Below are positions 3,791 to 64,000 of a stretch of 64,000 nucleotides of DNA, piece after piece. The DNA is taken from IMG/VR virus record IMGVR_UViG_3300013121_000004, positions 1 to 64,000 of that record; one strand, given 5' to 3'. Positions within the stretch are counted from its first letter, which is position 1; every line of letters begins with the position of its first letter. The position numbers were made by a program, and so were the translations under genes. Origin of the DNA: a virus. Taxonomy: Duplodnaviria > Caudoviricetes. The notes beneath the pieces were generated by a model. It had not been told where the DNA came from. It did not search any database and was given only the letters and a program-made list of their open reading frames with translations.

Positions 3791-3987
3791 TGTTTATTCT
3801 CCTTATTTATATATCTAACGCGATGTATACGCTGTCTATGATTTGAGTATCTTGTTTGCAGCATTCTCTCCTAGTCTGCCAGCAAACTTTATTGTGAAAA
3901 TACCTAGAAGCACGTACAGCGCTACCAGATGCTTTTGTCGTTTAGCTTCTTTTATTCTATCATAGAGGAGTGGGATAGTAAATTCGC

Positions 3988-5286: not shown

Positions 5287-6230
5287 ATATTCCATCTTTC
5301 TACTTCTTGTCCGCATGTAGGGCAGACTTTGAAGTTGTCATTCAAATACTTTTGCTTTTTTTCTAACTGTTCCGCAACAATAGATACTATACTTTCTGCT
5401 TCTATCAAGGCGTCTACTGTTTGATCTAAGTCTTTCACTTTTTCCTCTATCTCTATAAGAGATAGCGCTTCGTTTTTTAGGGCTGTCAAGTATCGCGCAT
5501 CTAGTGTTTTGATTTCACTTAGTTGAGTTTTGTATTCATCCATACTACTAGCTAGTGCATAAGTCTTTACGACTTCATCTACTTCACGAGTTAAGTATTT
5601 AATACTTGTATCTAGTTTATTGTACTTATTTCGATCTTCATGTAGTCTCTGCTCTAGTGCTTCTGCTACTTCTGTATTCTTTTCTAGAGTCGCAATTTTG
5701 CTTTTCCGATCAGCGTGTAGTTTTCTTACGTCTCTATTACAGGCCGTTAGAGCAGAGAAAATCACATCCATTTTGGTAACAGAAGCGATCACTTTAGCTG
5801 CCTGTTGCCCGCTCTCAGCTAATAGAAAAGGCAAAGACATTTGTGTACTAATTTGAGGAGTTAATTTAACGCCATCTATATCTATTGCCTTAATACCTAG
5901 CGCGTCGCTTATTTCGTCTGGAACTTTACCTCCAGTCTTTGTGTACTCTTGCGCTCCGCCTACAGTAGTTAGCTTATATACTCCGCCGCTCTTAGCGACT
6001 TTGCTCCATCCGACATGTAGCCCACTGCTCAACTCAATGTCTACTGAAGCTTTAGTTTGCCCTTGCTTAATAAACGAATCTCCACCTTGGTTGACTATGA
6101 CTGCATTTATTGCCCTAAATAGGGCGCTCTTTCCAGCATTACTAGGGCCAGTTATCACTGTAATCGGCCCTAGCTCTACTGTCTGGTTGTTGATTGATTG
6201 GTAGCCATGAACAGCTACTGATGAGATCAC
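5283..6230 (-). CDS. Rad50/SbcC-like ATPase, N-terminal half only (Walker A, coiled coil, terminal Zn-hook)
   Basis: YQSI...GPSNAGKS, Q-loop-like STQ, coiled coil, ends in CPTCG; no ABC signature or Walker B. Confidence 0.8.
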   Translation of the reverse strand: MISSVAVHGYQSINNQTVELGPITVITGPSNAGKSALFRAINAVIVNQGGDSFIKQGQTKASVDIELSSGLHVGWSKVAKSGGVYKLTTVGGAQEYTKTGGKVPDEISDALGIKAIDIDGVKLTPQISTQMSLPFLLAESGQQAAKVIASVTKMDVIFSALTACNRDVRKLHADRKSKIATLEKNTEVAEALEQRLHEDRNKYNKLDTSIKYLTREVDEVVKTYALASSMDEYKTQLSEIKTLDARYLTALKNEALSLIEIEEKVKDLDQTVDALIEAESIVSIVAEQLEKKQKYLNDNFKVCPTCGQEVERWNI

Positions 6231-54985: not shown

Positions 54986-55108
54986 TGTAGTATTCCTTAC
55001 TAGTCCTCTTGAGTCGTAGAAAGTATCAAACTAGCTCCTGTGTAATCAGATCGCTAGAGTTTACCACTCTCTGTTTGAATGGCGCAATGGCCCGTGTGCG
55101 CTGGATAC

Positions 55109-55564
55109 TCAGCCGTCGTTTCCATCGTCTGTAAACGCAAGCCGCACAATCACCGGGACGAGCTGGCGTCTGTACTCCGCCAAAAGCGGCGCTTCCTTGC
55201 GTTCGTACTCCTCCCAAAGCGGAGCGCGCTGCCGTTCGTACTTCGCCAAAAACGGAGCGCGCTGCCGTTCGTACTCCGCCAAAAGCGGAGCGCGCTGCCG
55301 TTTGTACTCCTCCCAAAGCGGAGCGCGCTGCCGTTCGTACTTCGCCAAAAGCGGAGCGCGCTGCCGTTCGTACTCCTCCCAAAGCGGGGCAGGGAACCGA
55401 CGTTCCACCGCCCATTCCACAGCGAGACCAACGCGGAAGGCCCGCTCAATGTTCTCGACCGTGATGGGCATCCCCTCTGGGAATGTTGCCTCGAACAACT
55501 CCCGCTGCTCCGTACACGCACCCCGCAGATGTTTCGCCCGAATCGGGTTCGGTATCCCATTCAT
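55109..55564 (-). CDS. Protein with 11-aa helical repeats
   Basis: (APLW/LxEYERQR)n. Confidence 0.7.
   Translation of the reverse strand: MNGIPNPIRAKHLRGACTEQRELFEATFPEGMPITVENIERAFRVGLAVEWAVERRFPAPLWEEYERQRAPLLAKYERQRAPLWEEYKRQRAPLLAEYERQRAPFLAKYERQRAPLWEEYERKEAPLLAEYRRQLVPVIVRLAFTDDGNDG
55173..55387. repeat. 33-bp tandem repeat, ~6.5 copies
   Basis: Variants of aaagcggagcgcgctgccgttcgtactcctccc. Confidence 0.9.
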
Positions 55565-56812
55565 TGCACCACCGCCTTCACAATGCCCTGTTGCGATAGA
55601 TAATAACGCTCACGAACTATCCTCCTCTGTTGTGTTCCACACATTTGTCCTGTTCCCTTCATTGAAGAAGTACACTGTGCACAACGCGCCATTGTGCTTG
55701 TTCATGAAATACCTGATAGCCTCGCGCTTTGTAAGGGCACGAATGCTATCGGTACTTCCATTCACTGATGCGTAATAAACGCGTGTATACTCCATCCTAC
55801 ACGAAGGAGTTACGCGCATTGCGTCGCATGGATGCGACATTCGCTGTGATCTGTTTGACGGATTGGATTGGGTTTTTGTTGCTGGAGATATACGGCTTCC
55901 AGATAGTTTCCGACACCCACAGTGGCGAAACTCCATCGCGCAACGTACCGTCAGGATTCCATCGCGCGGCAGTCATCTGCGCATCCGGTTTCGGGATGTA
56001 CTCCCTGAGCATAACGTTCGAGGTGATCGCGTCATCCAGATACACTCCCGGAAGAAAGCCAAAAACAGACATAGCTAAGGCACCCTTTCATGATGCAATT
56101 AGCGCGTTAAGTTCACCATGTTTAACGCGCTAAACGATTTGCAAGCTGCTGTAAATGTCCAGCCCTTCTTGCGCAGGATTATGCAAAATCGCACACTCGT
56201 TGCACGATATACAACCAAGGTGACCGCCATTTATGCAACGCGTTAAAGGGCAGAATACGCCTAATAATTCGGCCCTTTAACGCGTTATACAAGGGTATCG
56301 GACAAAGGGGTATTGCAATTCATCGCTTTTCATGCAATCCCCTTTTTGCCGCGTTTATCGAGGCCCGAACATGGCCTCGAAAGCAGCCAACTTGGCGCGC
56401 CTTTCTTCTGCCTCTACAGGCAGAGGTTCGCCACGACCGGGACGTTCTCGCATCACCCGATCGATGCGAATTTCGTGCACGAATTCTTGCTTGCTGGTGG
56501 TGACCAATTTGTCCTCTCTTGTGGTGGAATGCTGGGGCTTAGAGCGAAACGACGAGGAGGCCGATCGAAGATTCGTTGTCAAGGCATGCGCCACAAAGCG
56601 GCCTTCCCGTCAGGATATACACGCCCTTTGGGTACGCCCACTGGGCGCACCTTGAGCATTTGGTAACGATGTTCTTCTTGAGCATTTCTTTCTCCATCAT
56701 GCGTGTTAGATGCGCATCCCCTACTGGTTGTACTACGTGTAAGGCCAGAGGCCAGACACAGATAACACGATGACGATGGCTGCTCCTAGTAAGCAGCTAA
56801 ATGCGCCGATGC

Positions 56813-57328
56813 TCACTTGATCACCCCTTCTGCGCGACTGAGCATGTATCGGAAGAAGTACTTTCCCGTGCCCTTGGGCTTCTTGCCAGCGAGCGCGAGT
56901 TCGGTCATGAAGTGGATAAAGGCAATGCCTTCAGGGGAGCTTTTGCTCCACATTTCCACACTGTCGTGCTGCTTCTTCAGCTTGCTGAAAGCGTGGTGGG
57001 CTTCAAACACGTGCATGTCGATCAGCGTGTCGCGCGAATTCGGCCTCCTCATGACGAATCTAGCCGCATTGTCAGAGTACAATGCGGCTAGCGTTTCAGC
57101 CTCAAATCCGCCATCCCGAAGCGCCTCCTTGGCTTTGTTGAAGTCATAGACCAAGACGAACACATCGAGGTCAGACGAATCAGGCACCTTCTGGCTGTCA
57201 AGGAATCGGTATGACCCGCCGATAAAAGCCCCTCCGAGATTCTCCCATCCAAAAAGCGCCTCCATTGCGGCTTGAATGTTTCCGGCGAGAAGCGCCTTGT
57301 AGTTGTTCTCCAGCGTGTATGCGTCCAT
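56813..57328 (-). CDS. Putative pol-beta-type nucleotidyltransferase
   Basis: AFIGGSY...SDLDVFV...IDMHV. Confidence 0.55.
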   Translation of the reverse strand: MDAYTLENNYKALLAGNIQAAMEALFGWENLGGAFIGGSYRFLDSQKVPDSSDLDVFVLVYDFNKAKEALRDGGFEAETLAALYSDNAARFVMRRPNSRDTLIDMHVFEAHHAFSKLKKQHDSVEMWSKSSPEGIAFIHFMTELALAGKKPKGTGKYFFRYMLSRAEGVIK

Positions 57329-57331
57329 TGT

Positions 57332-57904
57332 TCAGTGCCCCTTACGTTCAATTTCGTCGAAGATGGCGAGTTTTTCGATCGCGATGCGGTCGAGTTCCTC
57401 TTGATGCTTGCGGTATTCACTGGCCGTGAATGCCTTCGTCGGTGTCACTTCGTACCGCGCACTCAGAGAAGGCGCGGTAACTACGAAGTTCATGCCATCA
57501 CACTCGATAATGGCCTCCTCTCCTTCTTCGAGCCAATCGCCAACTAGGTATTTGGCGATTTCAATGGCGTCTGCACACGTGGTGAAGACCCCAACGATCT
57601 CATTGCGCACATGATAGAAATCATATGCTTTCTCAAGCAGCCACAGCTGGTTAGACATTGGTTATTCCTCCTCTGGGAACGGAAGGCGGATTCCACACCA
57701 CGCGCAAAAGCGCACATTGTGGGTCGCCTCGAAATCGAGGCATACCATCCATGTGCGTTCGTTTGTAGCGTAGCCGAGATACACCCACGGCGGCATCGTG
57801 ATGCACACGTGCATACCGGACATGTTCACGTCTTCACCCCACCCTTTGAACGGCTCGCATTCGACGCCGATCATGGTGGTGGACTGTTCGTTATGCTGGA
57901 GCAT
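57332..57904 (-). CDS. Two hypothetical genes (57332-57658, 57662-57904)
   Basis: Packed ORFs with SD; FCAWCG Zn motif in the second. Confidence 0.55.
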
Positions 57905-57931
57905 TTAACGCCCTTTCTGTGCGTTTCTGGT

Positions 57932-57970
57932 GCTATGTACTAGGGTAATACACACACCCTAGTACATAGC
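57932..57970. terminator. 15-bp perfect hairpin after 57986..58819
   Basis: gctatgtactagggt-N9-accctagtacatagc. Confidence 0.55.
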
Positions 57971-57985
57971 GTGGTGCGTTGTGGA

Positions 57986-58819
57986 TTAACCCAGAACGGC
58001 GGCGCGTTCCTGCTGAATCGCCCACTTCCAGCGGTTCATGAGCGCGGACATGTAGACTGGGCGATTCCATTCCCAGTCCTTGAGGATCTCGGGGCGCGCC
58101 TTCGTCTTGCGCCCACCCTGCGGGCCAGTGATGATATCCCGAGGACGAATCCACGAGAAGTCCATGCCGGGATTGTTATCCCGGAGTTCTTGCAGGTACG
58201 CCGCAGCGTCAACGAGCGTACCCTGTTGCCCGTATGTGCTCTCCCGCGCCTGCTGTTCCTGCTGCTCAAGCTGCGCCTTGAGCCTGTCAAGCTCGTCGAG
58301 CTTCTTCAGGATGCCAGCCGAAGGCTGCACTTGCGCCTTCACCTGCTCCATGACAGGCTTCGGAGCCTGCTTCGCAGGAGCCGCGTAGGCGTTTTGCTTC
58401 GGCGCATGCGACCCGTTTACAGGGGCGTGCTTCCCGAGATTCCGCCCTTCATCGCGCGTCATGTTGACGCCTCCGCGCGCTTCGGCCATCAAAGCCGCTT
58501 CAGCAGCCTTCTGTGCTTCGCGTTCGATGGTCGCGCGATTCCGGCTCCCCGGAGGACGCCCGCGCCGTGGCTTCGGCGTAGCCGTGACCCCGAAGTTGTC
58601 ATCGAGGTTCTGGCGAATGGACGTGATGTTCTGAGGAGCCTGCACAGGCGTCCCGAGGACATTCGCAAGGGCGCTTTCAATCGCGCCGTCGATGATGCTC
58701 CCGACGAGCGCATCGATTACCGTGCGCTCAATCATGGGGCCGAGCTTTTCGCTCAGCCGCGCCTGAATCAGTTCTTGAAGCTTGTTCACTATAGTCTCCA
58801 TGCGTTTAGAATCCGCCAC
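57986..58819 (-). CDS. AT-hook/coiled-coil hypothetical protein
   Basis: PRRGRPPGSRN; SD GAGAGG. Confidence 0.6.
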   Translation of the reverse strand: MADSKRMETIVNKLQELIQARLSEKLGPMIERTVIDALVGSIIDGAIESALANVLGTPVQAPQNITSIRQNLDDNFGVTATPKPRRGRPPGSRNRATIEREAQKAAEAALMAEARGGVNMTRDEGRNLGKHAPVNGSHAPKQNAYAAPAKQAPKPVMEQVKAQVQPSAGILKKLDELDRLKAQLEQQEQQARESTYGQQGTLVDAAAYLQELRDNNPGMDFSWIRPRDIITGPQGGRKTKARPEILKDWEWNRPVYMSALMNRWKWAIQQERAAVLG

Positions 58820-58911
58820 CCTCTCTTGAGGCCCACCGTATATGCGCCCACATACGATGGAGCACGACTCTTACGCCGTGGCTTAGACTTCCGAGTGCGT
58901 GTGTGTGTGTG

Positions 58912-59433
58912 TTAGGCGAGCTTGCCGTCTGCGAGCTTGGCTGCGAACTGCCCGTTGTTGCCATCCGCGAGCGTGCTACCGCCCACGAGCCGGGACTTCT
59001 TCAGCCCCTTCTCGCTAGCGAGCGCAGTGTACTCGCGCGTGGTAGCCCAGTTGCCGCTTTCCCAGCCGCGCTTATCGCGGTTAGGGAGTTCGCTGAACCC
59101 CTCGCCCGTGGTAGGCGTATGACGCCTCTCCGCCCCTGTCCTGTGGTCGCTGTTCGGATTGCCGAGGTTGTACACCGGGCGCCCCCGAAAGTGCCCGACT
59201 AGGCCGGGCGTTTCATTCACGCCCGACTTGTGCACGTATGGCACGAAGGCAGGGCCACTATCGGCCCCTCGCTGAAGCACGCGCTTGGGTTGCGCAGGCT
59301 TCTCTGCAAAGCCTGCACTCATGGCGTGTGCCGCTGTAGCGGCTCGCAAGGCACGGCGTTCTTCACGCGCCCTATAGGCTGCTTCACGGTCAGCAGTTGC
59401 CTGCTGCATATCGAGCGTGACGACGTAACCCAT
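58912..59433 (-). CDS. Hypothetical protein
   Basis: SD GGAGG; GC-rich codons. Confidence 0.55.
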   Translation of the reverse strand: MGYVVTLDMQQATADREAAYRAREERRALRAATAAHAMSAGFAEKPAQPKRVLQRGADSGPAFVPYVHKSGVNETPGLVGHFRGRPVYNLGNPNSDHRTGAERRHTPTTGEGFSELPNRDKRGWESGNWATTREYTALASEKGLKKSRLVGGSTLADGNNGQFAAKLADGKLA

Positions 59434-59490
59434 GATGAACCCTCCGAGTGTGTTTGTCGGGGGAGCATAGCTCCCCCTAGGGCGTGTGGA

Positions 59491-59865
59491 CTAGGCGAGC
59501 TTGGCGGGCGTCTTGGCCTTGGCGGGCTGCTTTGCAGCCTGTGCGGGCTTGGCGTAGCGGGCCGCAGCCTCTGCCTTGCGGGCTTCCCGCTTCGCGGGCT
59601 CTTCGACCGACAGGTAGCAGGCCATCCGGCCCTCGCGGTTCACCCATGAGCGTCCGAAGTACACCCGGTATCCCTTCGGGATACCGTGAGCCTTCAGGAA
59701 GGTCGTTGAGAACAGATCCTCCGCAGCGGCTTTGCCGCTGTGTGTCCGCATGTCGTGGGCGATGAACGCCACGACTCGGAACCCTTCGTGGTGGGCTTCC
59801 GCACGGACACCAGTCTTGCCCTTGGCAAGACCCGTGATTGCGGACTGGATTGCATTGCTGGACAT
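59491..59865 (-). CDS. Basic Ala/Lys-rich hypothetical protein
   Basis: SD GAGGT; histone-like AK-rich tail; hairpin at 59460-59476 after the stop. Confidence 0.6.
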   Translation of the reverse strand: MSSNAIQSAITGLAKGKTGVRAEAHHEGFRVVAFIAHDMRTHSGKAAAEDLFSTTFLKAHGIPKGYRVYFGRSWVNREGRMACYLSVEEPAKREARKAEAAARYAKPAQAAKQPAKAKTPAKLA

Positions 59866-59877
59866 GGTACACCTCTA

Positions 59878-60420
59878 GACAAAGCTCGCGCCTTTTAGGC
59901 GCGGCATAGCGAAAATGTACCTTATTTTGAGCACGCTTCCGCTAGGCCGCGTGTAAAACACGCTTTGCCTTCCCCCGTCCCCCATAAGCGCATATCTTCA
60001 CTTGGCGGGCGCAGCTCTCCTACGGACTCATAACCCGGAGGCACGCGGGCCTCAGAGCTGCATAGGGGTTATTACGAACGTTGGCACCACCCAACGCGCT
60101 TATTGTTAATGTACTCTAGGCACAGCTACCGCCGCGACATAACGTTTCGGCCACGGGTGGCTTGCGCTATGTGGTGAGCATAGCTCGCGCCAACCCTTGA
60201 CGTCCCGGCTTCGCCTTACAGGGTCAGCCTTCCGTTCAACGGTAACCTACCTATCGAAGAGTGTTTTGGACATAGCTCACGCCTGCCTGCTAGCTGCCAT
60301 GCTAAGGCTCGTTATTGCTATCCCGCGTCCCATAGCTCGCGCTTAAGGTGTCTTGGCTGACCCCTACCGCGTTTGCCCAAAGCTACCGCTCACGTCCGGG
60401 ACAAGTCAACCGAACGTCTA
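59878..60420 (-). ncRNA. Candidate large structured RNA / long 5' leader
   Basis: No credible ORF; nested long-range helices, a pseudoknot and six copies of GCGBDAGCTDTG. Confidence 0.45.
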
Positions 60421-60591
60421 GCTAATGGAATCACTCTTTAAGGTGCGACCGAATCGGTTGAGATTGGATTCGGCAAAGGCCGCAATCGGCCTCGACCCCC
60501 AGAGAATGAACTGTTTCGGCGGTTTTGGCAGGATGTCCTCGGGGGTCTAACCCACCCGCCGTTTGCATTTCCGCTAGGTTTGCGCAATTAA

Positions 60592-60784
60592 TACATACAC
60601 TCGTATATGCTATGTGTGTATGCGTATGTATCCTCAATAACGGTATCATCGTATATGGTATGGTAGGTATATAGTATATCTGTGGTGTATGTATGCTATG
60701 TGTATAGTCTACCTGTGATGTATGTATGGTAATGCGGTAAGGTATACGTGGTAGCATGATAGTGCTCTACTGTCATGCTCTATG
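60592..60784. repeat. Low-complexity TATG/GTAT tract at the GC boundary
   Basis: tatgtgtgtatgcgtatgtat...ggtatggtaggtatatagtatat...tgtatgtatgctatgtgtat. Confidence 0.7.
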
Positions 60785-60970
60785 AAAATGTACTCCGGTA
60801 CAGGCTTTGAATGGTAGTCAAACATTTGAGAGATTTTGTGAATTTGTTAGTAGAGGGGTATCTTACTACGTTTGGGCTCAGGTAATAAAAACCCCACTAG
60901 AGTATAGTGGGGTAGATTTTTTGATAAATAGGCGATGCGGGCCGTTGTGGTGCGTTTCAGGCGGTATTAT

Positions 60971-61357
60971 TTATGTGTTGCTGGAGAATAAACTGGTGAT
61001 CCAGTGTGGGCGGTGGTGTAGTGGGTCTATGTTGCGATCGAAGATTACCAGTCCACTGATAGATGGGAATTGGTTGGTATACTCTTCGTACGCTCGGCGC
61101 ATAGACCCTCCAGTGGTATACACGTCATCGCATATCAGGAGATTGAATCTAGCGTATGAAGTGTATTGCTCCATAGCTTTCGCTAAGCGAAGTCCTCCTC
61201 TGGGGATGCCTACTACGTCGGAGAAGGGTGGGAGTCTTTGGGAGGCGATATACGCCAGTGTTTCGATGTCTCCGTCTGTCAGCGCGTCACAGTCTATTTT
61301 CCATTCGGACTTTAATCCGCTATTGAGTGTATAGTCACCTATTTGGAATAATGTCAT
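60971..61357 (-). CDS. Minimal orotate phosphoribosyltransferase-like type I PRTase
   Basis: YTLNSGLKSEWKID, GIPRGG, DDVYTTGGS. Confidence 0.8.
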   Translation of the reverse strand: MTLFQIGDYTLNSGLKSEWKIDCDALTDGDIETLAYIASQRLPPFSDVVGIPRGGLRLAKAMEQYTSYARFNLLICDDVYTTGGSMRRAYEEYTNQFPSISGLVIFDRNIDPLHHRPHWITSLFSSNT

Positions 61358-61358
61358 A

Positions 61359-61760
61359 TTATTTGTCTGGCTCCATTCTGTCCTTCCGATTTGTTGTATC
61401 TACGTCTCTTGCGTGCAGTACTTCCATAAGTGACACTGTACCGAAGGTACAGTAATCAGAATGCTTCCACTCGTACAAGAACTCCAATAAGTTGGAGAGG
61501 GAAGGGTCAGCGTCCAGTACGGAGTATAACCTTTGTAGTTCGCGTAGTGTGGCTCCGGTGCGTACGGCATCTTCGTACTCTTCTACGTTGTCGAATAACC
61601 AAAACTTGAAGTTTTGCGCGTATCCTACGTTAGTGGATAGGAATTCGATTAGCTCTTTGATACCGTTTACGGTGTCGTAGAATAGCACTACTGCTGAATC
61701 TTGTTCGAATACTAATGCGTACTCTGCTACGTCATTACCCACGATTAACCTCCGGCACAT
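61359..61760 (-). CDS. Hypothetical protein, paralogue of 30471..30800
   Basis: Shared ELQ...P(S/T)..N.L.F..EW pattern. Confidence 0.55.
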   Translation of the reverse strand: MCRRLIVGNDVAEYALVFEQDSAVVLFYDTVNGIKELIEFLSTNVGYAQNFKFWLFDNVEEYEDAVRTGATLRELQRLYSVLDADPSLSNLLEFLYEWKHSDYCTFGTVSLMEVLHARDVDTTNRKDRMEPDK

Positions 61761-61867
61761 TTAGTAAGAATACCCGCCTGTAGGCTTTATTGATTTGCAC
61801 TCTTTGGCCTCCAGATGAGAAACATATCAGCTTCTCCACTATAATACTCTCAACTATACAGCTCCTT

Positions 61868-62329
61868 TTATCTCTTCCAAAAAATTTCGTATTTGTTCTT
61901 CTCCTTCACTGTGTCTGCTGATAGCCCTGTTATGATTATTCTGTTTGGTAGGTATTGGTTTCGTGTTTGTACAAGGTTTGTCCAATCTTCGTTAGTTATC
62001 TTCTGATCATCGCAAGCGATGATTATCGGGTACATTATTGACTCGCACTCTCTTGAATGGCCTAGCCCTATGCAATGCCCGAACTCGTGTATGGCTATCA
62101 CTACTAGGAAGTCTATGTCTAGATTCTCTAGTCCTTTCTCTTGATACTCACGTTCGTAGTATTCTAGTCCATCTGTAAATCGCACATAGCACGTCTGGAG
62201 CGGCGCAGGAGCAGCATACGCCAGTACACTTGGGCTTTCGGTGTCTGTATACCCGATGTCGAAGTTTACACCACTGTAGCCCCATACAGCGGCTGCGATG
62301 TACATAACGATGCTAAGTAATGCTGTCAT
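61868..62329 (-). CDS. Secreted matrixin-family (M10-like) metalloprotease
   Basis: SD AGGAGG and ATG 62329; signal peptide; HEFGHCIGLGHS, SIMYP Met-turn. Confidence 0.85.
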   Translation of the reverse strand: MTALLSIVMYIAAAVWGYSGVNFDIGYTDTESPSVLAYAAPAPLQTCYVRFTDGLEYYEREYQEKGLENLDIDFLVVIAIHEFGHCIGLGHSRECESIMYPIIIACDDQKITNEDWTNLVQTRNQYLPNRIIITGLSADTVKEKNKYEIFWKR

Positions 62330-62349
62330 ACTTTTCCTCCTATTGTAGT

Positions 62350-62413
62350 AGGGTAACACACGTTTGACGCGTTGTAAAGCGCATTTGACGCGGTGATTCG
62401 TCTATGCTACCCT
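62350..62413. promoter_or_regulatory. Back-to-back divergent promoters: TTTACA-17-TACCCT (minus, 62350-62378) and TTGACG-17-TACCCT (plus, 62385-62413)
   Basis: Both have exact 17-nt spacers and extended TG. Confidence 0.75.
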
Positions 62414-62440
62414 TAGTATATAACGCGAGAGTAGGAGAGT

Positions 62441-63850
62441 TTGATGGTTAAAGTATTTCACCTGTCAGTAGTCGATGAACAGTGGAACGCAGATATTGAG
62501 TTAGGAATTTTCTCCTCACTCAAGCAAGCAAAAGCGATTGCACGAAACATCTTTCCACCGCAGCCAGAATGGTACTTTAAGGACGAAATTGCAACATATA
62601 TTGCAGAAGTAAGCGGGAATACCGGGGTACCGTACACACTTTCTATCTCTGTCTGGGAGATGGACGACGAGTCAGCAGTGAAAGAATACAAAGAAAATTG
62701 GCTAGGGAAAGGAGGTACGGATGACTAAATTCAAGTGCTTCTTCTTCGGACATGAAGATATATTCAAGTTGTTCTGGAAAGGTAAGCTAAACCTGCATAG
62801 TGAATGCAAGCACTGTGGGGATTTCTTCAAAGAATACCAAATCCCTGCGTCTGCTCCTAAATATCTAATGGAACAGATGATTGAGAGGCAAAGAAATAAC
62901 AACTTCATGCCTCCCAACTACAGCCACAAATGGGGAGGGCCATTATGGGAACTACGCCCCTTAGCTACAAAACACATACGACGATAGAAGAAACTGGTAG
63001 CTCATTCAGACGGATTTGCTCTATCTGTAAAAGTTGGGTTATAGACCATACTTTTATCAGGAAAACAGATCACACAGACGAATGTGAATTTCAGAAAGTA
63101 GCGATAGACGACACGGAGGAAACAATGCAAATCAGTTATAGTAATGATCAAGACCGCATGGATCGATTCGACCAAAAACTAGATGTTATTATGAATCGAC
63201 TTCTGGAAGTCGTGGAAGAGATAAATAGCGTCCACGATATTGCTTCAGCAGCGTATGACGCAGTAGAATCACTAGCTGCTGAGATGGAACAGTTTCGCGA
63301 TGGACTAGGCGAGAACGTACTTGAAGTCGAAACTGATTAGATGGCTTTTTCAAAAACCAAAAGACGAAGAGCGCCCTCCTCAGTGTACATGTATAGTGTT
63401 CCATAATAACTGGGAGGGCCAAGTAATCGTATTCTCTACCGATTGCCCGTGGCACGGTGAGTATGCAGAATATAATGTCGGGCACAGGCTAAAAGACCCG
63501 TGGAAAGAATAATTTCAAACAGCGTAGTACGAGAAAAAGGAGAGCATATGGAGAACAACGCTAAACCACCAACGCAGGTAGTCGGTGTAGAATCCGTGGA
63601 AAGCGGATTCGTGGCAGGAGGATGGAATGACAAGGAAGAAAAGCCGGTTGAACAGCCAACCAACAAAGGCAGTATTCCTCGTATTCGCTGCCCTTTCTGT
63701 CATAAAGATTTCCGGTCTATTTTATCGGCTTCGCATCAGAAGGCTTGTAGAAGCAAATTTATGGTCAAGTGCGAACAATGTGGAGAACGTGTACTCTACG
63801 TTAGTATTGCCAACGGTACACATGGAAACAGGTGCCTTAAGAATGACTAG
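62441..63850 (+). CDS. Rightward operon of small hypothetical genes (62441-62728, 62721-62987, ~63125-63340, 63321-63512, ~63548-63850)
   Basis: Coupled ORFs with SD sequences; several Zn-binding CxxC motifs. Confidence 0.55.
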
Positions 63851-64000
63851 GATTATAGCTGCAAAGGGAGCAGAGTTACGCTGGGACTCTGATTGGCCTG
63901 ATTACTCTGAGGTCGGTAATTGGTGGCCTGTTATCGAGAAGAGCGGAAAAGTAACAGGTTTAGCTATCATCTGCCCTCAATCGAAATATAGTTTTGGTGT

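Follow-up and report, generated by a model that had tools for sequence, protein, structure and literature searches.

Processive antitermination in phages works through RNA sites such as nut and put, or through the promoter-bound protein Q. Loading at DNA hairpins of the non-template strand, as at the ops element, is to our knowledge known only from cellular and plasmid operons, and there only at single sites. In ops (GGCGGTAGCGTG), C3 and G8 form the hairpin stem, G4 to A7 the loop, and the TG at positions 11 and 12 is the pausing element; RfaH reads G5 and T6 base-specifically, and a G5A exchange abolishes RfaH recruitment in E. coli (PMC5995543). The GCGNNAGC mini-hairpin DNA is extraordinarily stable, with two G-C pairs and a sheared G-A pair, and has been reported where primase starts synthesis in phages G4, St-1 and alpha3, and also from the early promoters of phage N4 (Kimoto and Hirao, 2026; PMC13037366). 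The element described here is best described as an array version, placed in a phage leader, of these known signals of the ops and mini-hairpin class that are read on a single strand.

The window analyzed comprises the first 64 kb of one 105,902-bp IMG/VR phage record, which is classed as linear, is about 85% complete by the CheckV estimate and has an overall GC content of about 44%. The phage genome is dsDNA of the siphovirus type and encodes a large terminase subunit, ribonucleotide reductase, a UvsX-like recombinase, a split PolA, a DnaB-like helicase and a DnaG-like primase; a 2216-aa ORF is the tape-measure protein, which points to a long-tailed virus. The nearest database phages share only about 30% protein identity. 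The - strand carries the genes as far as about 62.4 kb, after which they switch to the + strand, and a GC-rich block at 55-60.5 kb, reaching 67% GC, stands out in composition from the remaining sequence. The first gene behind the array, P0001 (59491..59865, - strand), encodes a 124-aa ORFan with a Lys/Ala-rich tail, for which 1.8 billion representative proteins yielded just two relatives, P0004 at 91% and P0008 at 47% identity. We refer to the window as lineage A, to nine metagenomic loci carrying P0004 (L018-L026) as lineage B, and to L031, which is identical to L033 and was reached via a 43%-identical homologue of P0003, as lineage C.

The element lies in a non-coding interval at 59866..60970 (- strand), which by the ORF lists begins where a PRTase-like gene (60971-61357, - strand) ends and extends to the P0001 start. 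Nowhere else in the 105,902-bp genome is there an ORF-free gap as large as this interval. The sole long ORF inside it (60431-60757) is disrupted by a 17-nt indel in relatives, and gene callers reported no gene on the matching interval of L018-L026 and L031. A strong bidirectional intrinsic terminator at 60891..60913, with its equivalent in L031 at 1821-1848, closes the upstream leftward operon. It is followed in the direction of the genes by an AT-rich block (60590..60880), G+T-rich on the + strand, with GTAT-type repeats at 11- and 22-nt spacing; this block carries the 17-nt indel in lineage B and is missing from L031, so that it is neither a conserved nor a core part of the element. Next to it lies a distal conserved block (60530..60590, - strand) with the sense sequence AATTGCGCAA-NC-TAGCGG-W-AATGCAA ... 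GACCCCCGAG, which includes a degenerate repeat copy and is a candidate promoter or control region for a leftward transcript. A sigma-70 consensus was not found, and no promoter was identified. Searches of the region with blastn against phage and plasmid collections gave no match.

An earlier note on this DNA, made from the letters alone, had described 59878-60420 as a stretch free of any credible ORF with a six-fold repeated 12-mer. The absence of genes holds and the stretch is non-coding, but the true gap extends to 60970. The 12-mer CAHAGCTMVCGC indeed occurs exactly six times, at 59880, 60121, 60179, 60271, 60331 and 60378, always on the + strand, against 0.12 occurrences expected; none of 100 shuffles attained six, and no occurrence was found elsewhere in the 105,902-bp genome. 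The inventory of six was nevertheless incomplete, an 11-mer at 59932-59942 and a weak core at 60160-60167 having been overlooked, and a supposed degenerate copy at 59466 turned out to belong to an 8-bp palindromic hairpin in an intergenic position and lacks one of the invariant bases.

Read on the gene-sense strand, the motif is GCG-NN-AGC-(T)-N-TG, usually followed by YCY and an A/G-rich run. Copy 1 (59880..59891, sense GCGCGAGCTTTG) precedes the P0001 start codon by 14 nt and overlaps a hairpin, H1, while copy 2 (59932..59942), the 11-mer variant (sense GCGGAAGCGTG; + strand CACGCTTCCGC), is located inside a helix, H2. Copy 3 (60121..60132) reads GGCGGTAGCTGTG with its flanking G, copies 4 (60179..60190) and 6 (60331..60342) both read GCGCGAGCTATG, copy 5 (60271..60282) reads GCGTGAGCTATG and copy 7 (60378..60389) reads GCGGTAGCTTTG; the weak extra core (60160..60167, sense GCGCAAGC) is without the TG tail. 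All are on the - strand, every copy being sense with respect to the downstream genes. The 8-nt core GCTNNCGC is found eight times in the window and nine times in L031, where about 0.3 would be expected, on one strand only, with none on the + strand of the region. Spacing is irregular (42-190 nt by one count, 47-241 nt by another), and all copies fall within 0.6 kb, with the strong terminator on one side and about 60 kb of genes running in the same direction on the other. GCG..AGC is unchanged throughout the 15 main copies that the window and L031 have together, and TG is present in 14 of them (L031 copy 1 ends in TA), shifted by one additional T in six of the seven window copies. The loops of the repeat mini-hairpins are 4 nt long and of GNRA type in 13 of the 15 copies; the loop dinucleotides are CG, GT, TG and GA in the window (GT in two of seven, copies 3 and 7) and CG, AG, GA, TA and GG in L031.

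Comparison of the lineages separates the repeats from the sequence around them. Lineage B shares about 91% DNA identity with the window over 59400-61400, in a mosaic in which 59100-59930 differs by 10-16% and 59930-60300 and 60800-61700 are almost identical; the near-identity of the interior reflects recent shared ancestry of the block and is therefore little evidence of constraint. A and B differ by 24 substitutions over 541 aligned nucleotides; the 62 invariant motif positions are free of them, and two fall at the 14 variable "NN" loop positions. In lineage B the loop of copy 1 changes from GCGA to GTGA with the invariant positions kept, and loop base G5 of copy 7 becomes A. The proteins of lineage C are about 45% identical to those of the window, and the layout of terminator, conserved block, array and first gene is common to all three lineages, with about 650 nt of GC-rich non-coding DNA between the conserved block and the P0001-like gene in L031. 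Only about 100 RBS-proximal nucleotides, the distal block and a 17-mer can be aligned between A and C; the spacers between copies are unalignable and the interior sequence is not conserved between lineages. The copies themselves stand at similar positions (18, 69, 259, 317, 409, 469 and 516 in A; 21, 82, 233, 334, 415, 475 and 545 in C). The window has mostly 12-mers and lineage C mostly 11-mers (CATGCTTCCGC), but copies 1 and 2 both have orthologous copies in L031, and in both lineages copy 1 is of the 12-mer and copy 2 of the 11-mer type. This matching of the two forms by copy indicates that both are old and evidently interchangeable. What is conserved in the interval is thus the short oriented repeats and the two terminal blocks rather than the interior, and the comparison supports the repeat as a conserved, oriented set of recognition sites.

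Beyond these lineages the arrangement was not encountered. Distant loci with just the PRTase-like gene in common (L001-L017) show neither such a gap nor such a motif, and a pattern scan of viral contigs for two spaced 12-mers gave four matches, all unrelated (two coding repeats, a contig of 29% GC, L028, and an iteron-like array, L030). Metagenome and viral contigs scanned with profiles and patterns yielded no lineage beyond these three, and a search with P0002 for homologues gave no additional relatives.

The closest correspondence is with ops. The invariant motif positions G2 C3 G4, A7 G8 C9 and T11 G12 are all identical to GGCGGTAGCGTG; copy 2 (GCGGAAGCGTG), whose sequence recurs as L031 copy 8, matches the ops core GCGGTAGCGTG in 10 of 11 positions, and copy 3 (GGCGGTAGCTGTG) equals the ops sequence GGCGGTAGC-GTG plus one additional T (GGCGGTAGC-T-GTG). 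Like ops, the copies are 11-12 nt long, lie on the sense strand 5' of a long gene run, and could form a C3:G8 hairpin followed by TG. They differ from it in that the loop bases 5 and 6 (G and T in ops) vary between phage copies, that most window copies have an additional T before the TG, and that the phage has eight copies compared to one in E. coli and plasmid systems (e.g., PrfaH). Since only copies 3 and 7 carry GT at the loop, the array copies are not canonical RfaH ops sites, the relation being one of resemblance rather than membership. With the mini-hairpin DNA the array shares an 8-nt core that is exactly GCGNNAGC, its presence on one strand and its location in a phage non-coding region. 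The sites of G4, St-1 and alpha3 are however single sites in ssDNA phages, whereas here an array is found in a dsDNA siphovirus-type genome, and N4 has three hairpins with 3-nt loops that are read by its virion RNA polymerase.

Several other identities for the repeats were considered and rejected. An N4-type promoter does not agree with the absence of a virion RNA polymerase (the largest ORFs encode tape-measure and tail proteins), nor with 4-nt loops as opposed to the 5-7-bp stem and 3-nt loop of N4. Sigma-54, Bacteroidetes-type, ECF and actinobacterial promoters fail in spacing or key bases in most copies. No sigma-70 domain was found in the phage record, and a T7-type RNA polymerase gave no match in the phage, the PF00940 search being uninformative as its control likewise had no match. 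Small ORFs starting at the ATG, GTG or TTG of the motif are 4-20 codons long and not conserved, and transposon ends are contradicted by the lack of inverted copies at the other border of the island.

What the three lineages plainly show is an array that is confined to one strand, is conserved and matches ops position by position, and by analogy we tentatively prefer, at well below even confidence, to read it as a set of ops-like sites on the non-template strand at which polymerase would pause and a factor would load. The GC-rich interval of about 0.7 kb would then be a leader heading the leftward gene array, equipped with seven to eight co-oriented signals of 11-12 nt, each GCG-NN-AGC-(T)-N-TG being read on the sense, non-template DNA strand. 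Once that strand is exposed in the transcription bubble, each copy would form the GCGNNAGC mini-hairpin, and the pause-type TG at its end would cause RNA polymerase to pause; a non-template-strand hairpin presented at the pause would give an elongation factor the chance to load, as happens at ops. Such a factor could be a host NusG paralog or some phage protein, and eight successive chances would make loading near-certain before the long leftward operon is entered. Here we infer transcription through the array, pausing and the existence of the factor. Several observations speak against this scenario. The RfaH-read bases G5 and T6 vary between copies, so that a reader other than RfaH would be needed, most window copies have an additional T between hairpin and TG, and the ops sites of known leaders are single rather than arrayed in eights. 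A six-frame search with the Pfam NusG NGN domain at E <= 1 found no such gene in the phage record, which is about 85% complete. The lack of an identified promoter at the locus also weighs against it, and the match to ops was noticed after the fact.

The earlier note had favored a different interpretation, in which the stretch was a heavily base-paired RNA comparable to GOLLD and ROOL, or an antitermination leader comparable to HK022 put, with an array of DNA operator sites as its alternative. The likeness to these systems is that of a long non-coding phage stretch ahead of a long operon; the locus differs from them in having no Rfam match, folds and helices near chance and an interior that is not conserved. 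A large structured phage ncRNA over about 550 nt is not supported. Fold z-scores of the region are -1.86 for the - strand and -2.12 for the + strand, and -1.3 on both strands of L031, so that in both lineages folding is barely better than in shuffles and heavy base pairing is not supported. Counts of inverted complementarities are 17 at 7 nt, 4 at 8 nt and 1 at 9 nt, where dinucleotide shuffles give 11.3, 2.95 and 0.78 (p >= 0.12). The long-range complementary segments that had been pointed out are all five exact, but such pairs occur at chance frequency, and the pseudoknot and nested long-range helices drawn from them are likewise chance-frequency complementarities; at the proposed long-range helices A and B are identical and C is unalignable. 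Between the motif copies, the spacer sequences are no more stably folded than their shuffles, and Rfam returned nothing relevant either at the gathering threshold or with E <= 10. In models of the full-length fold, the repeats are not exposed, do not adopt mini-stems and show no enrichment, although nearest-neighbor models of this kind do not capture mini-hairpin formation. With near-shuffle folding in two lineages and a non-conserved interior, the GOLLD/ROOL-like multi-domain RNA is left without support, while the idea of an antitermination leader gains support through the DNA-level resemblance to ops and not as a put-like RNA.

What the comparison does support as conserved RNA structure is limited to about 100 nt by the P0001 RBS (H1-H3), probably a modest structured 5' UTR. 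Hairpin H1 (59887..59903, - strand), just upstream of the P0001 Shine-Dalgarno, shows in lineage B a compensatory change from C-G to U-A and a change from G-C to G.U that pairs on the sense strand only, and it is kept in L031. Helix H2 (59903-59916 with 59935-59948, - strand) has up to 14 pairs including G.U on the sense strand, 12 of the 14 positions pairing in the window and all 14 in L031, and a variable apical loop into which a 44-nt insertion of lineage B falls. In the place of the local hairpin H3 (GCGUGU/ACACGC; 59949..59963, - strand), L031 has a different hairpin, GCCAC/GUGGC, equivalent to three compensatory pairs. Two of the local hairpins proposed before (gcgcct/aggcgc and gcgtgt/acacgc) are thus supported by compensatory changes in relatives, and covariation among homologues is present in H1-H3 but only there.

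The most serious competitor to an ops-like array is a replication origin, in which the repeats, on the lagging-strand template of a leftward fork, would act as signals that initiate or prime synthesis strand-specifically; we consider this possible, if somewhat unlikely. The sites may be iteron-like, or mini-hairpins of the G4/ssi type, and the array is perhaps activated by transcription through the GC-rich leader. This would fit the largest non-coding region of the genome with a repeat absent elsewhere, and the global minimum of cumulative GC skew of the 105.9-kb record, which falls at 60,436, no more than 50 nt from the array end, and is accompanied by a positive GC skew of the three - strand genes at 60971-62359, unlike the remaining left arm. 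Skew is nevertheless confounded by gene orientation, and the AT-skew minimum and the gene strand switch both lie at 62.4 kb. The AT-rich block with 11-nt periodic repeats that adjoins the array also points to an origin, but is missing in lineage C. The phage has its own DnaG-like primase, DnaB-like helicase and PolA with no recognizable initiator, which can be counted in favor of an origin, as can the presence of GCGNNAGC mini-hairpins at the primase start sites of G4, St-1 and alpha3 (PMC13037366); conversely, it is not obvious why a phage equipped with a helicase-primase would need special hairpins for priming, and none of the neighboring proteins matches an initiator family. A repeat-bearing non-coding region is the origin in the PLE satellite, with RepA iterons (PMC7145576), and the likeness to such iteron-type origins consists in the large non-coding region, the direct repeats and the closeness to a strand or skew switch. 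Of what characterizes iterons, the array has multiple direct repeats in one orientation at one locus only; it does not have regular spacing, sites of the classical 17-22 bp, a conserved AT-rich element or a RepA-like initiator gene nearby, its own sites being short and irregular.

Recognition of the sites as duplex DNA, by a sequence-specific binding protein that controls, at an operator or roadblock array, transcription entering the early operon, is unlikely in our view. The binder could be P0001, with its basic tail, or P0003, which has an RGRP AT-hook, and the array could then be a clustered analogue of mycobacteriophage stoperators. The stoperators of phage L5 are asymmetric sites of about 13 bp in one orientation to transcription, occur genome-wide and are bound by the immunity repressor; the phage sites resemble them in asymmetry and single orientation, but are confined to 0.6 kb and found nowhere else. 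Oriented asymmetric sites upstream of an operon that are kept while the spacers drift would suit such a protein, as would the shift in repeat type between the lineages (mostly 12-mers in A, 11-mers in C) in parallel with the roughly 50% divergence of the adjacent proteins. Against it, 11- and 12-nt forms occur together in one lineage, which a rigid duplex site would rarely tolerate, and the variable positions fall exactly at the loop of the would-be mini-hairpin. No DNA-binding fold or family was detected in P0001-P0003, which received no assignment from Foldseek, ESM Atlas, a PDB profile search, Pfam, PHROGs or NCBIfam, the fold prediction for P0001 having a pLDDT of 65. Slightly less probable still is a function at the RNA level, whether with or without a larger fold, the leader transcript repeats (GC[GNRA]GC) serving as a protein-binding sponge, a translational operator or a nut-like site. 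The GNRA-type loops, the position of copy 1 only 14 nt from the start codon and the helices of the RBS-proximal 100 nt, with compensatory and G.U changes favoring the sense strand, would be in keeping with this. The fold energies near shuffles in two lineages, the non-conserved interior and the absence of an Rfam match even at E up to 10 argue against it, as do repeats that are not predicted to be exposed, 2-bp mini-stems that are rare in the RNA ensemble and flanking bases that give no consistent stem extension. Finally, the repeats could have no dedicated function and be decayed tandem duplicates of a unit of motif and ribosome-binding site in acquired GC-rich DNA, as copy 3 and its downstream bases resemble copy 1 and the RBS (CTCTAGR..TAC) and the entire 55-60.5 kb block deviates in GC from the remaining genome. 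We regard this as very improbable, given that copy number, orientation and approximate positions are kept despite unalignable spacers, and that no substitution falls in the 62 invariant positions compared to 24 elsewhere in the region.

Taken together, the interval more likely controls transcription elongation or marks a replication origin than forms a big folded RNA. If the ops-like array is the true reading, the mechanism of ops loading would extend to viruses, and a new reader protein would be implied, as the bases read by RfaH are not conserved in the array. It is conceivable, although rather doubtful, that the array loads a non-RfaH elongation factor, perhaps a phage ORFan such as P0001, which would render the host RNA polymerase processive over about 60 kb; with the same reserve, such an array might do, at many sites and on the level of DNA, what nut/N does in lambda and put in HK022. 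If the region is an origin instead, an array of GCGNNAGC mini-hairpins in a large dsDNA phage would be a first. In both cases, the call of a giant ncRNA gives way to a defined 11-12-nt signal with invariant positions.

Helix H2, in which positions 59903-59916 of the window pair with 59935-59948, carries an insertion of 44 nt in its apical loop in lineage B, the group of metagenomic loci with about 91% DNA identity to the window (insertion point at window position 59923; about 3890-3935 in the lineage B locus L020). The inserted segment contains a CCCCCGAAGGGGG hairpin of its own, as well as part of repeat 2 in inverted orientation (CCGGAAGCGTG), which is able to pair with repeat 2 itself. Another hairpin, a perfect 8-bp palindrome (GGGGGAGC-ATA-GCTCCCCC, window 59459-59477), lies in the 57-nt gap between the genes for P0001 and P0002, and includes the 3' half of the repeat (GAGCTATG) but lacks its invariant C3.

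P0001, P0002 and their homologues P0008 and P0006 in the more distant lineage C locus L031 share a K-x-L-A C-terminus (AKLA, GKLA, KTLA and KVLA; window 59491-59500 and 58912-58920, L031 3020-3030 and 5257-5266). The early ORFans with this tail are otherwise unrelated, and the recurrent ending resembles ssrA-like degradation tags.

The cumulative GC skew reaches its global minimum at 60,436, and the AT-skew minimum and the switch in gene strand fall 2 kb away at 62,414; the three minus-strand genes between these points are the only ones on that strand whose GC skew is positive. A minus-strand ORF (55109-55564) contains tandem units of the type EYERQRAPL(L/W), forming a GC-rich coding repeat at window 55100-55500 through which more than one reading frame stays open; several do so.

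In L030 (IMGVR_UViG_3300007038_000013), units of the CCATAGCYCSGCC type, some in each orientation, make up a dense iteron-like array at 5830-6075, with a 27-nt direct repeat flanking it and a 190-aa ORFan downstream. L030 is an unrelated viral contig, and its array has no homology to the window.

Both ends of the full record G000 (1-200 and 105700-105902) lie where a tail-fibre-like gene has a tandem coding repeat, overlapping by about 58 nt before they diverge; the break in the record is probably at a repeat within the genome and does not mark a physical end. It also encodes a 2216-aa tape-measure protein (G000 79678-86328; L034 678-7328) with an M23 peptidase domain in its C-terminal part (residues about 1981-2083).

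Compared with its closest relatives (L018-L020), window 55500-64000 shows strongly mosaic divergence, blocks of 0-2% difference being interspersed with blocks of 10-35% (57700-58000, 59100-59930 and beyond 61700). The stretch from 55.5 to 59 kb is where many related contigs stop, suggesting that the early region is recombination-prone or hypervariable.
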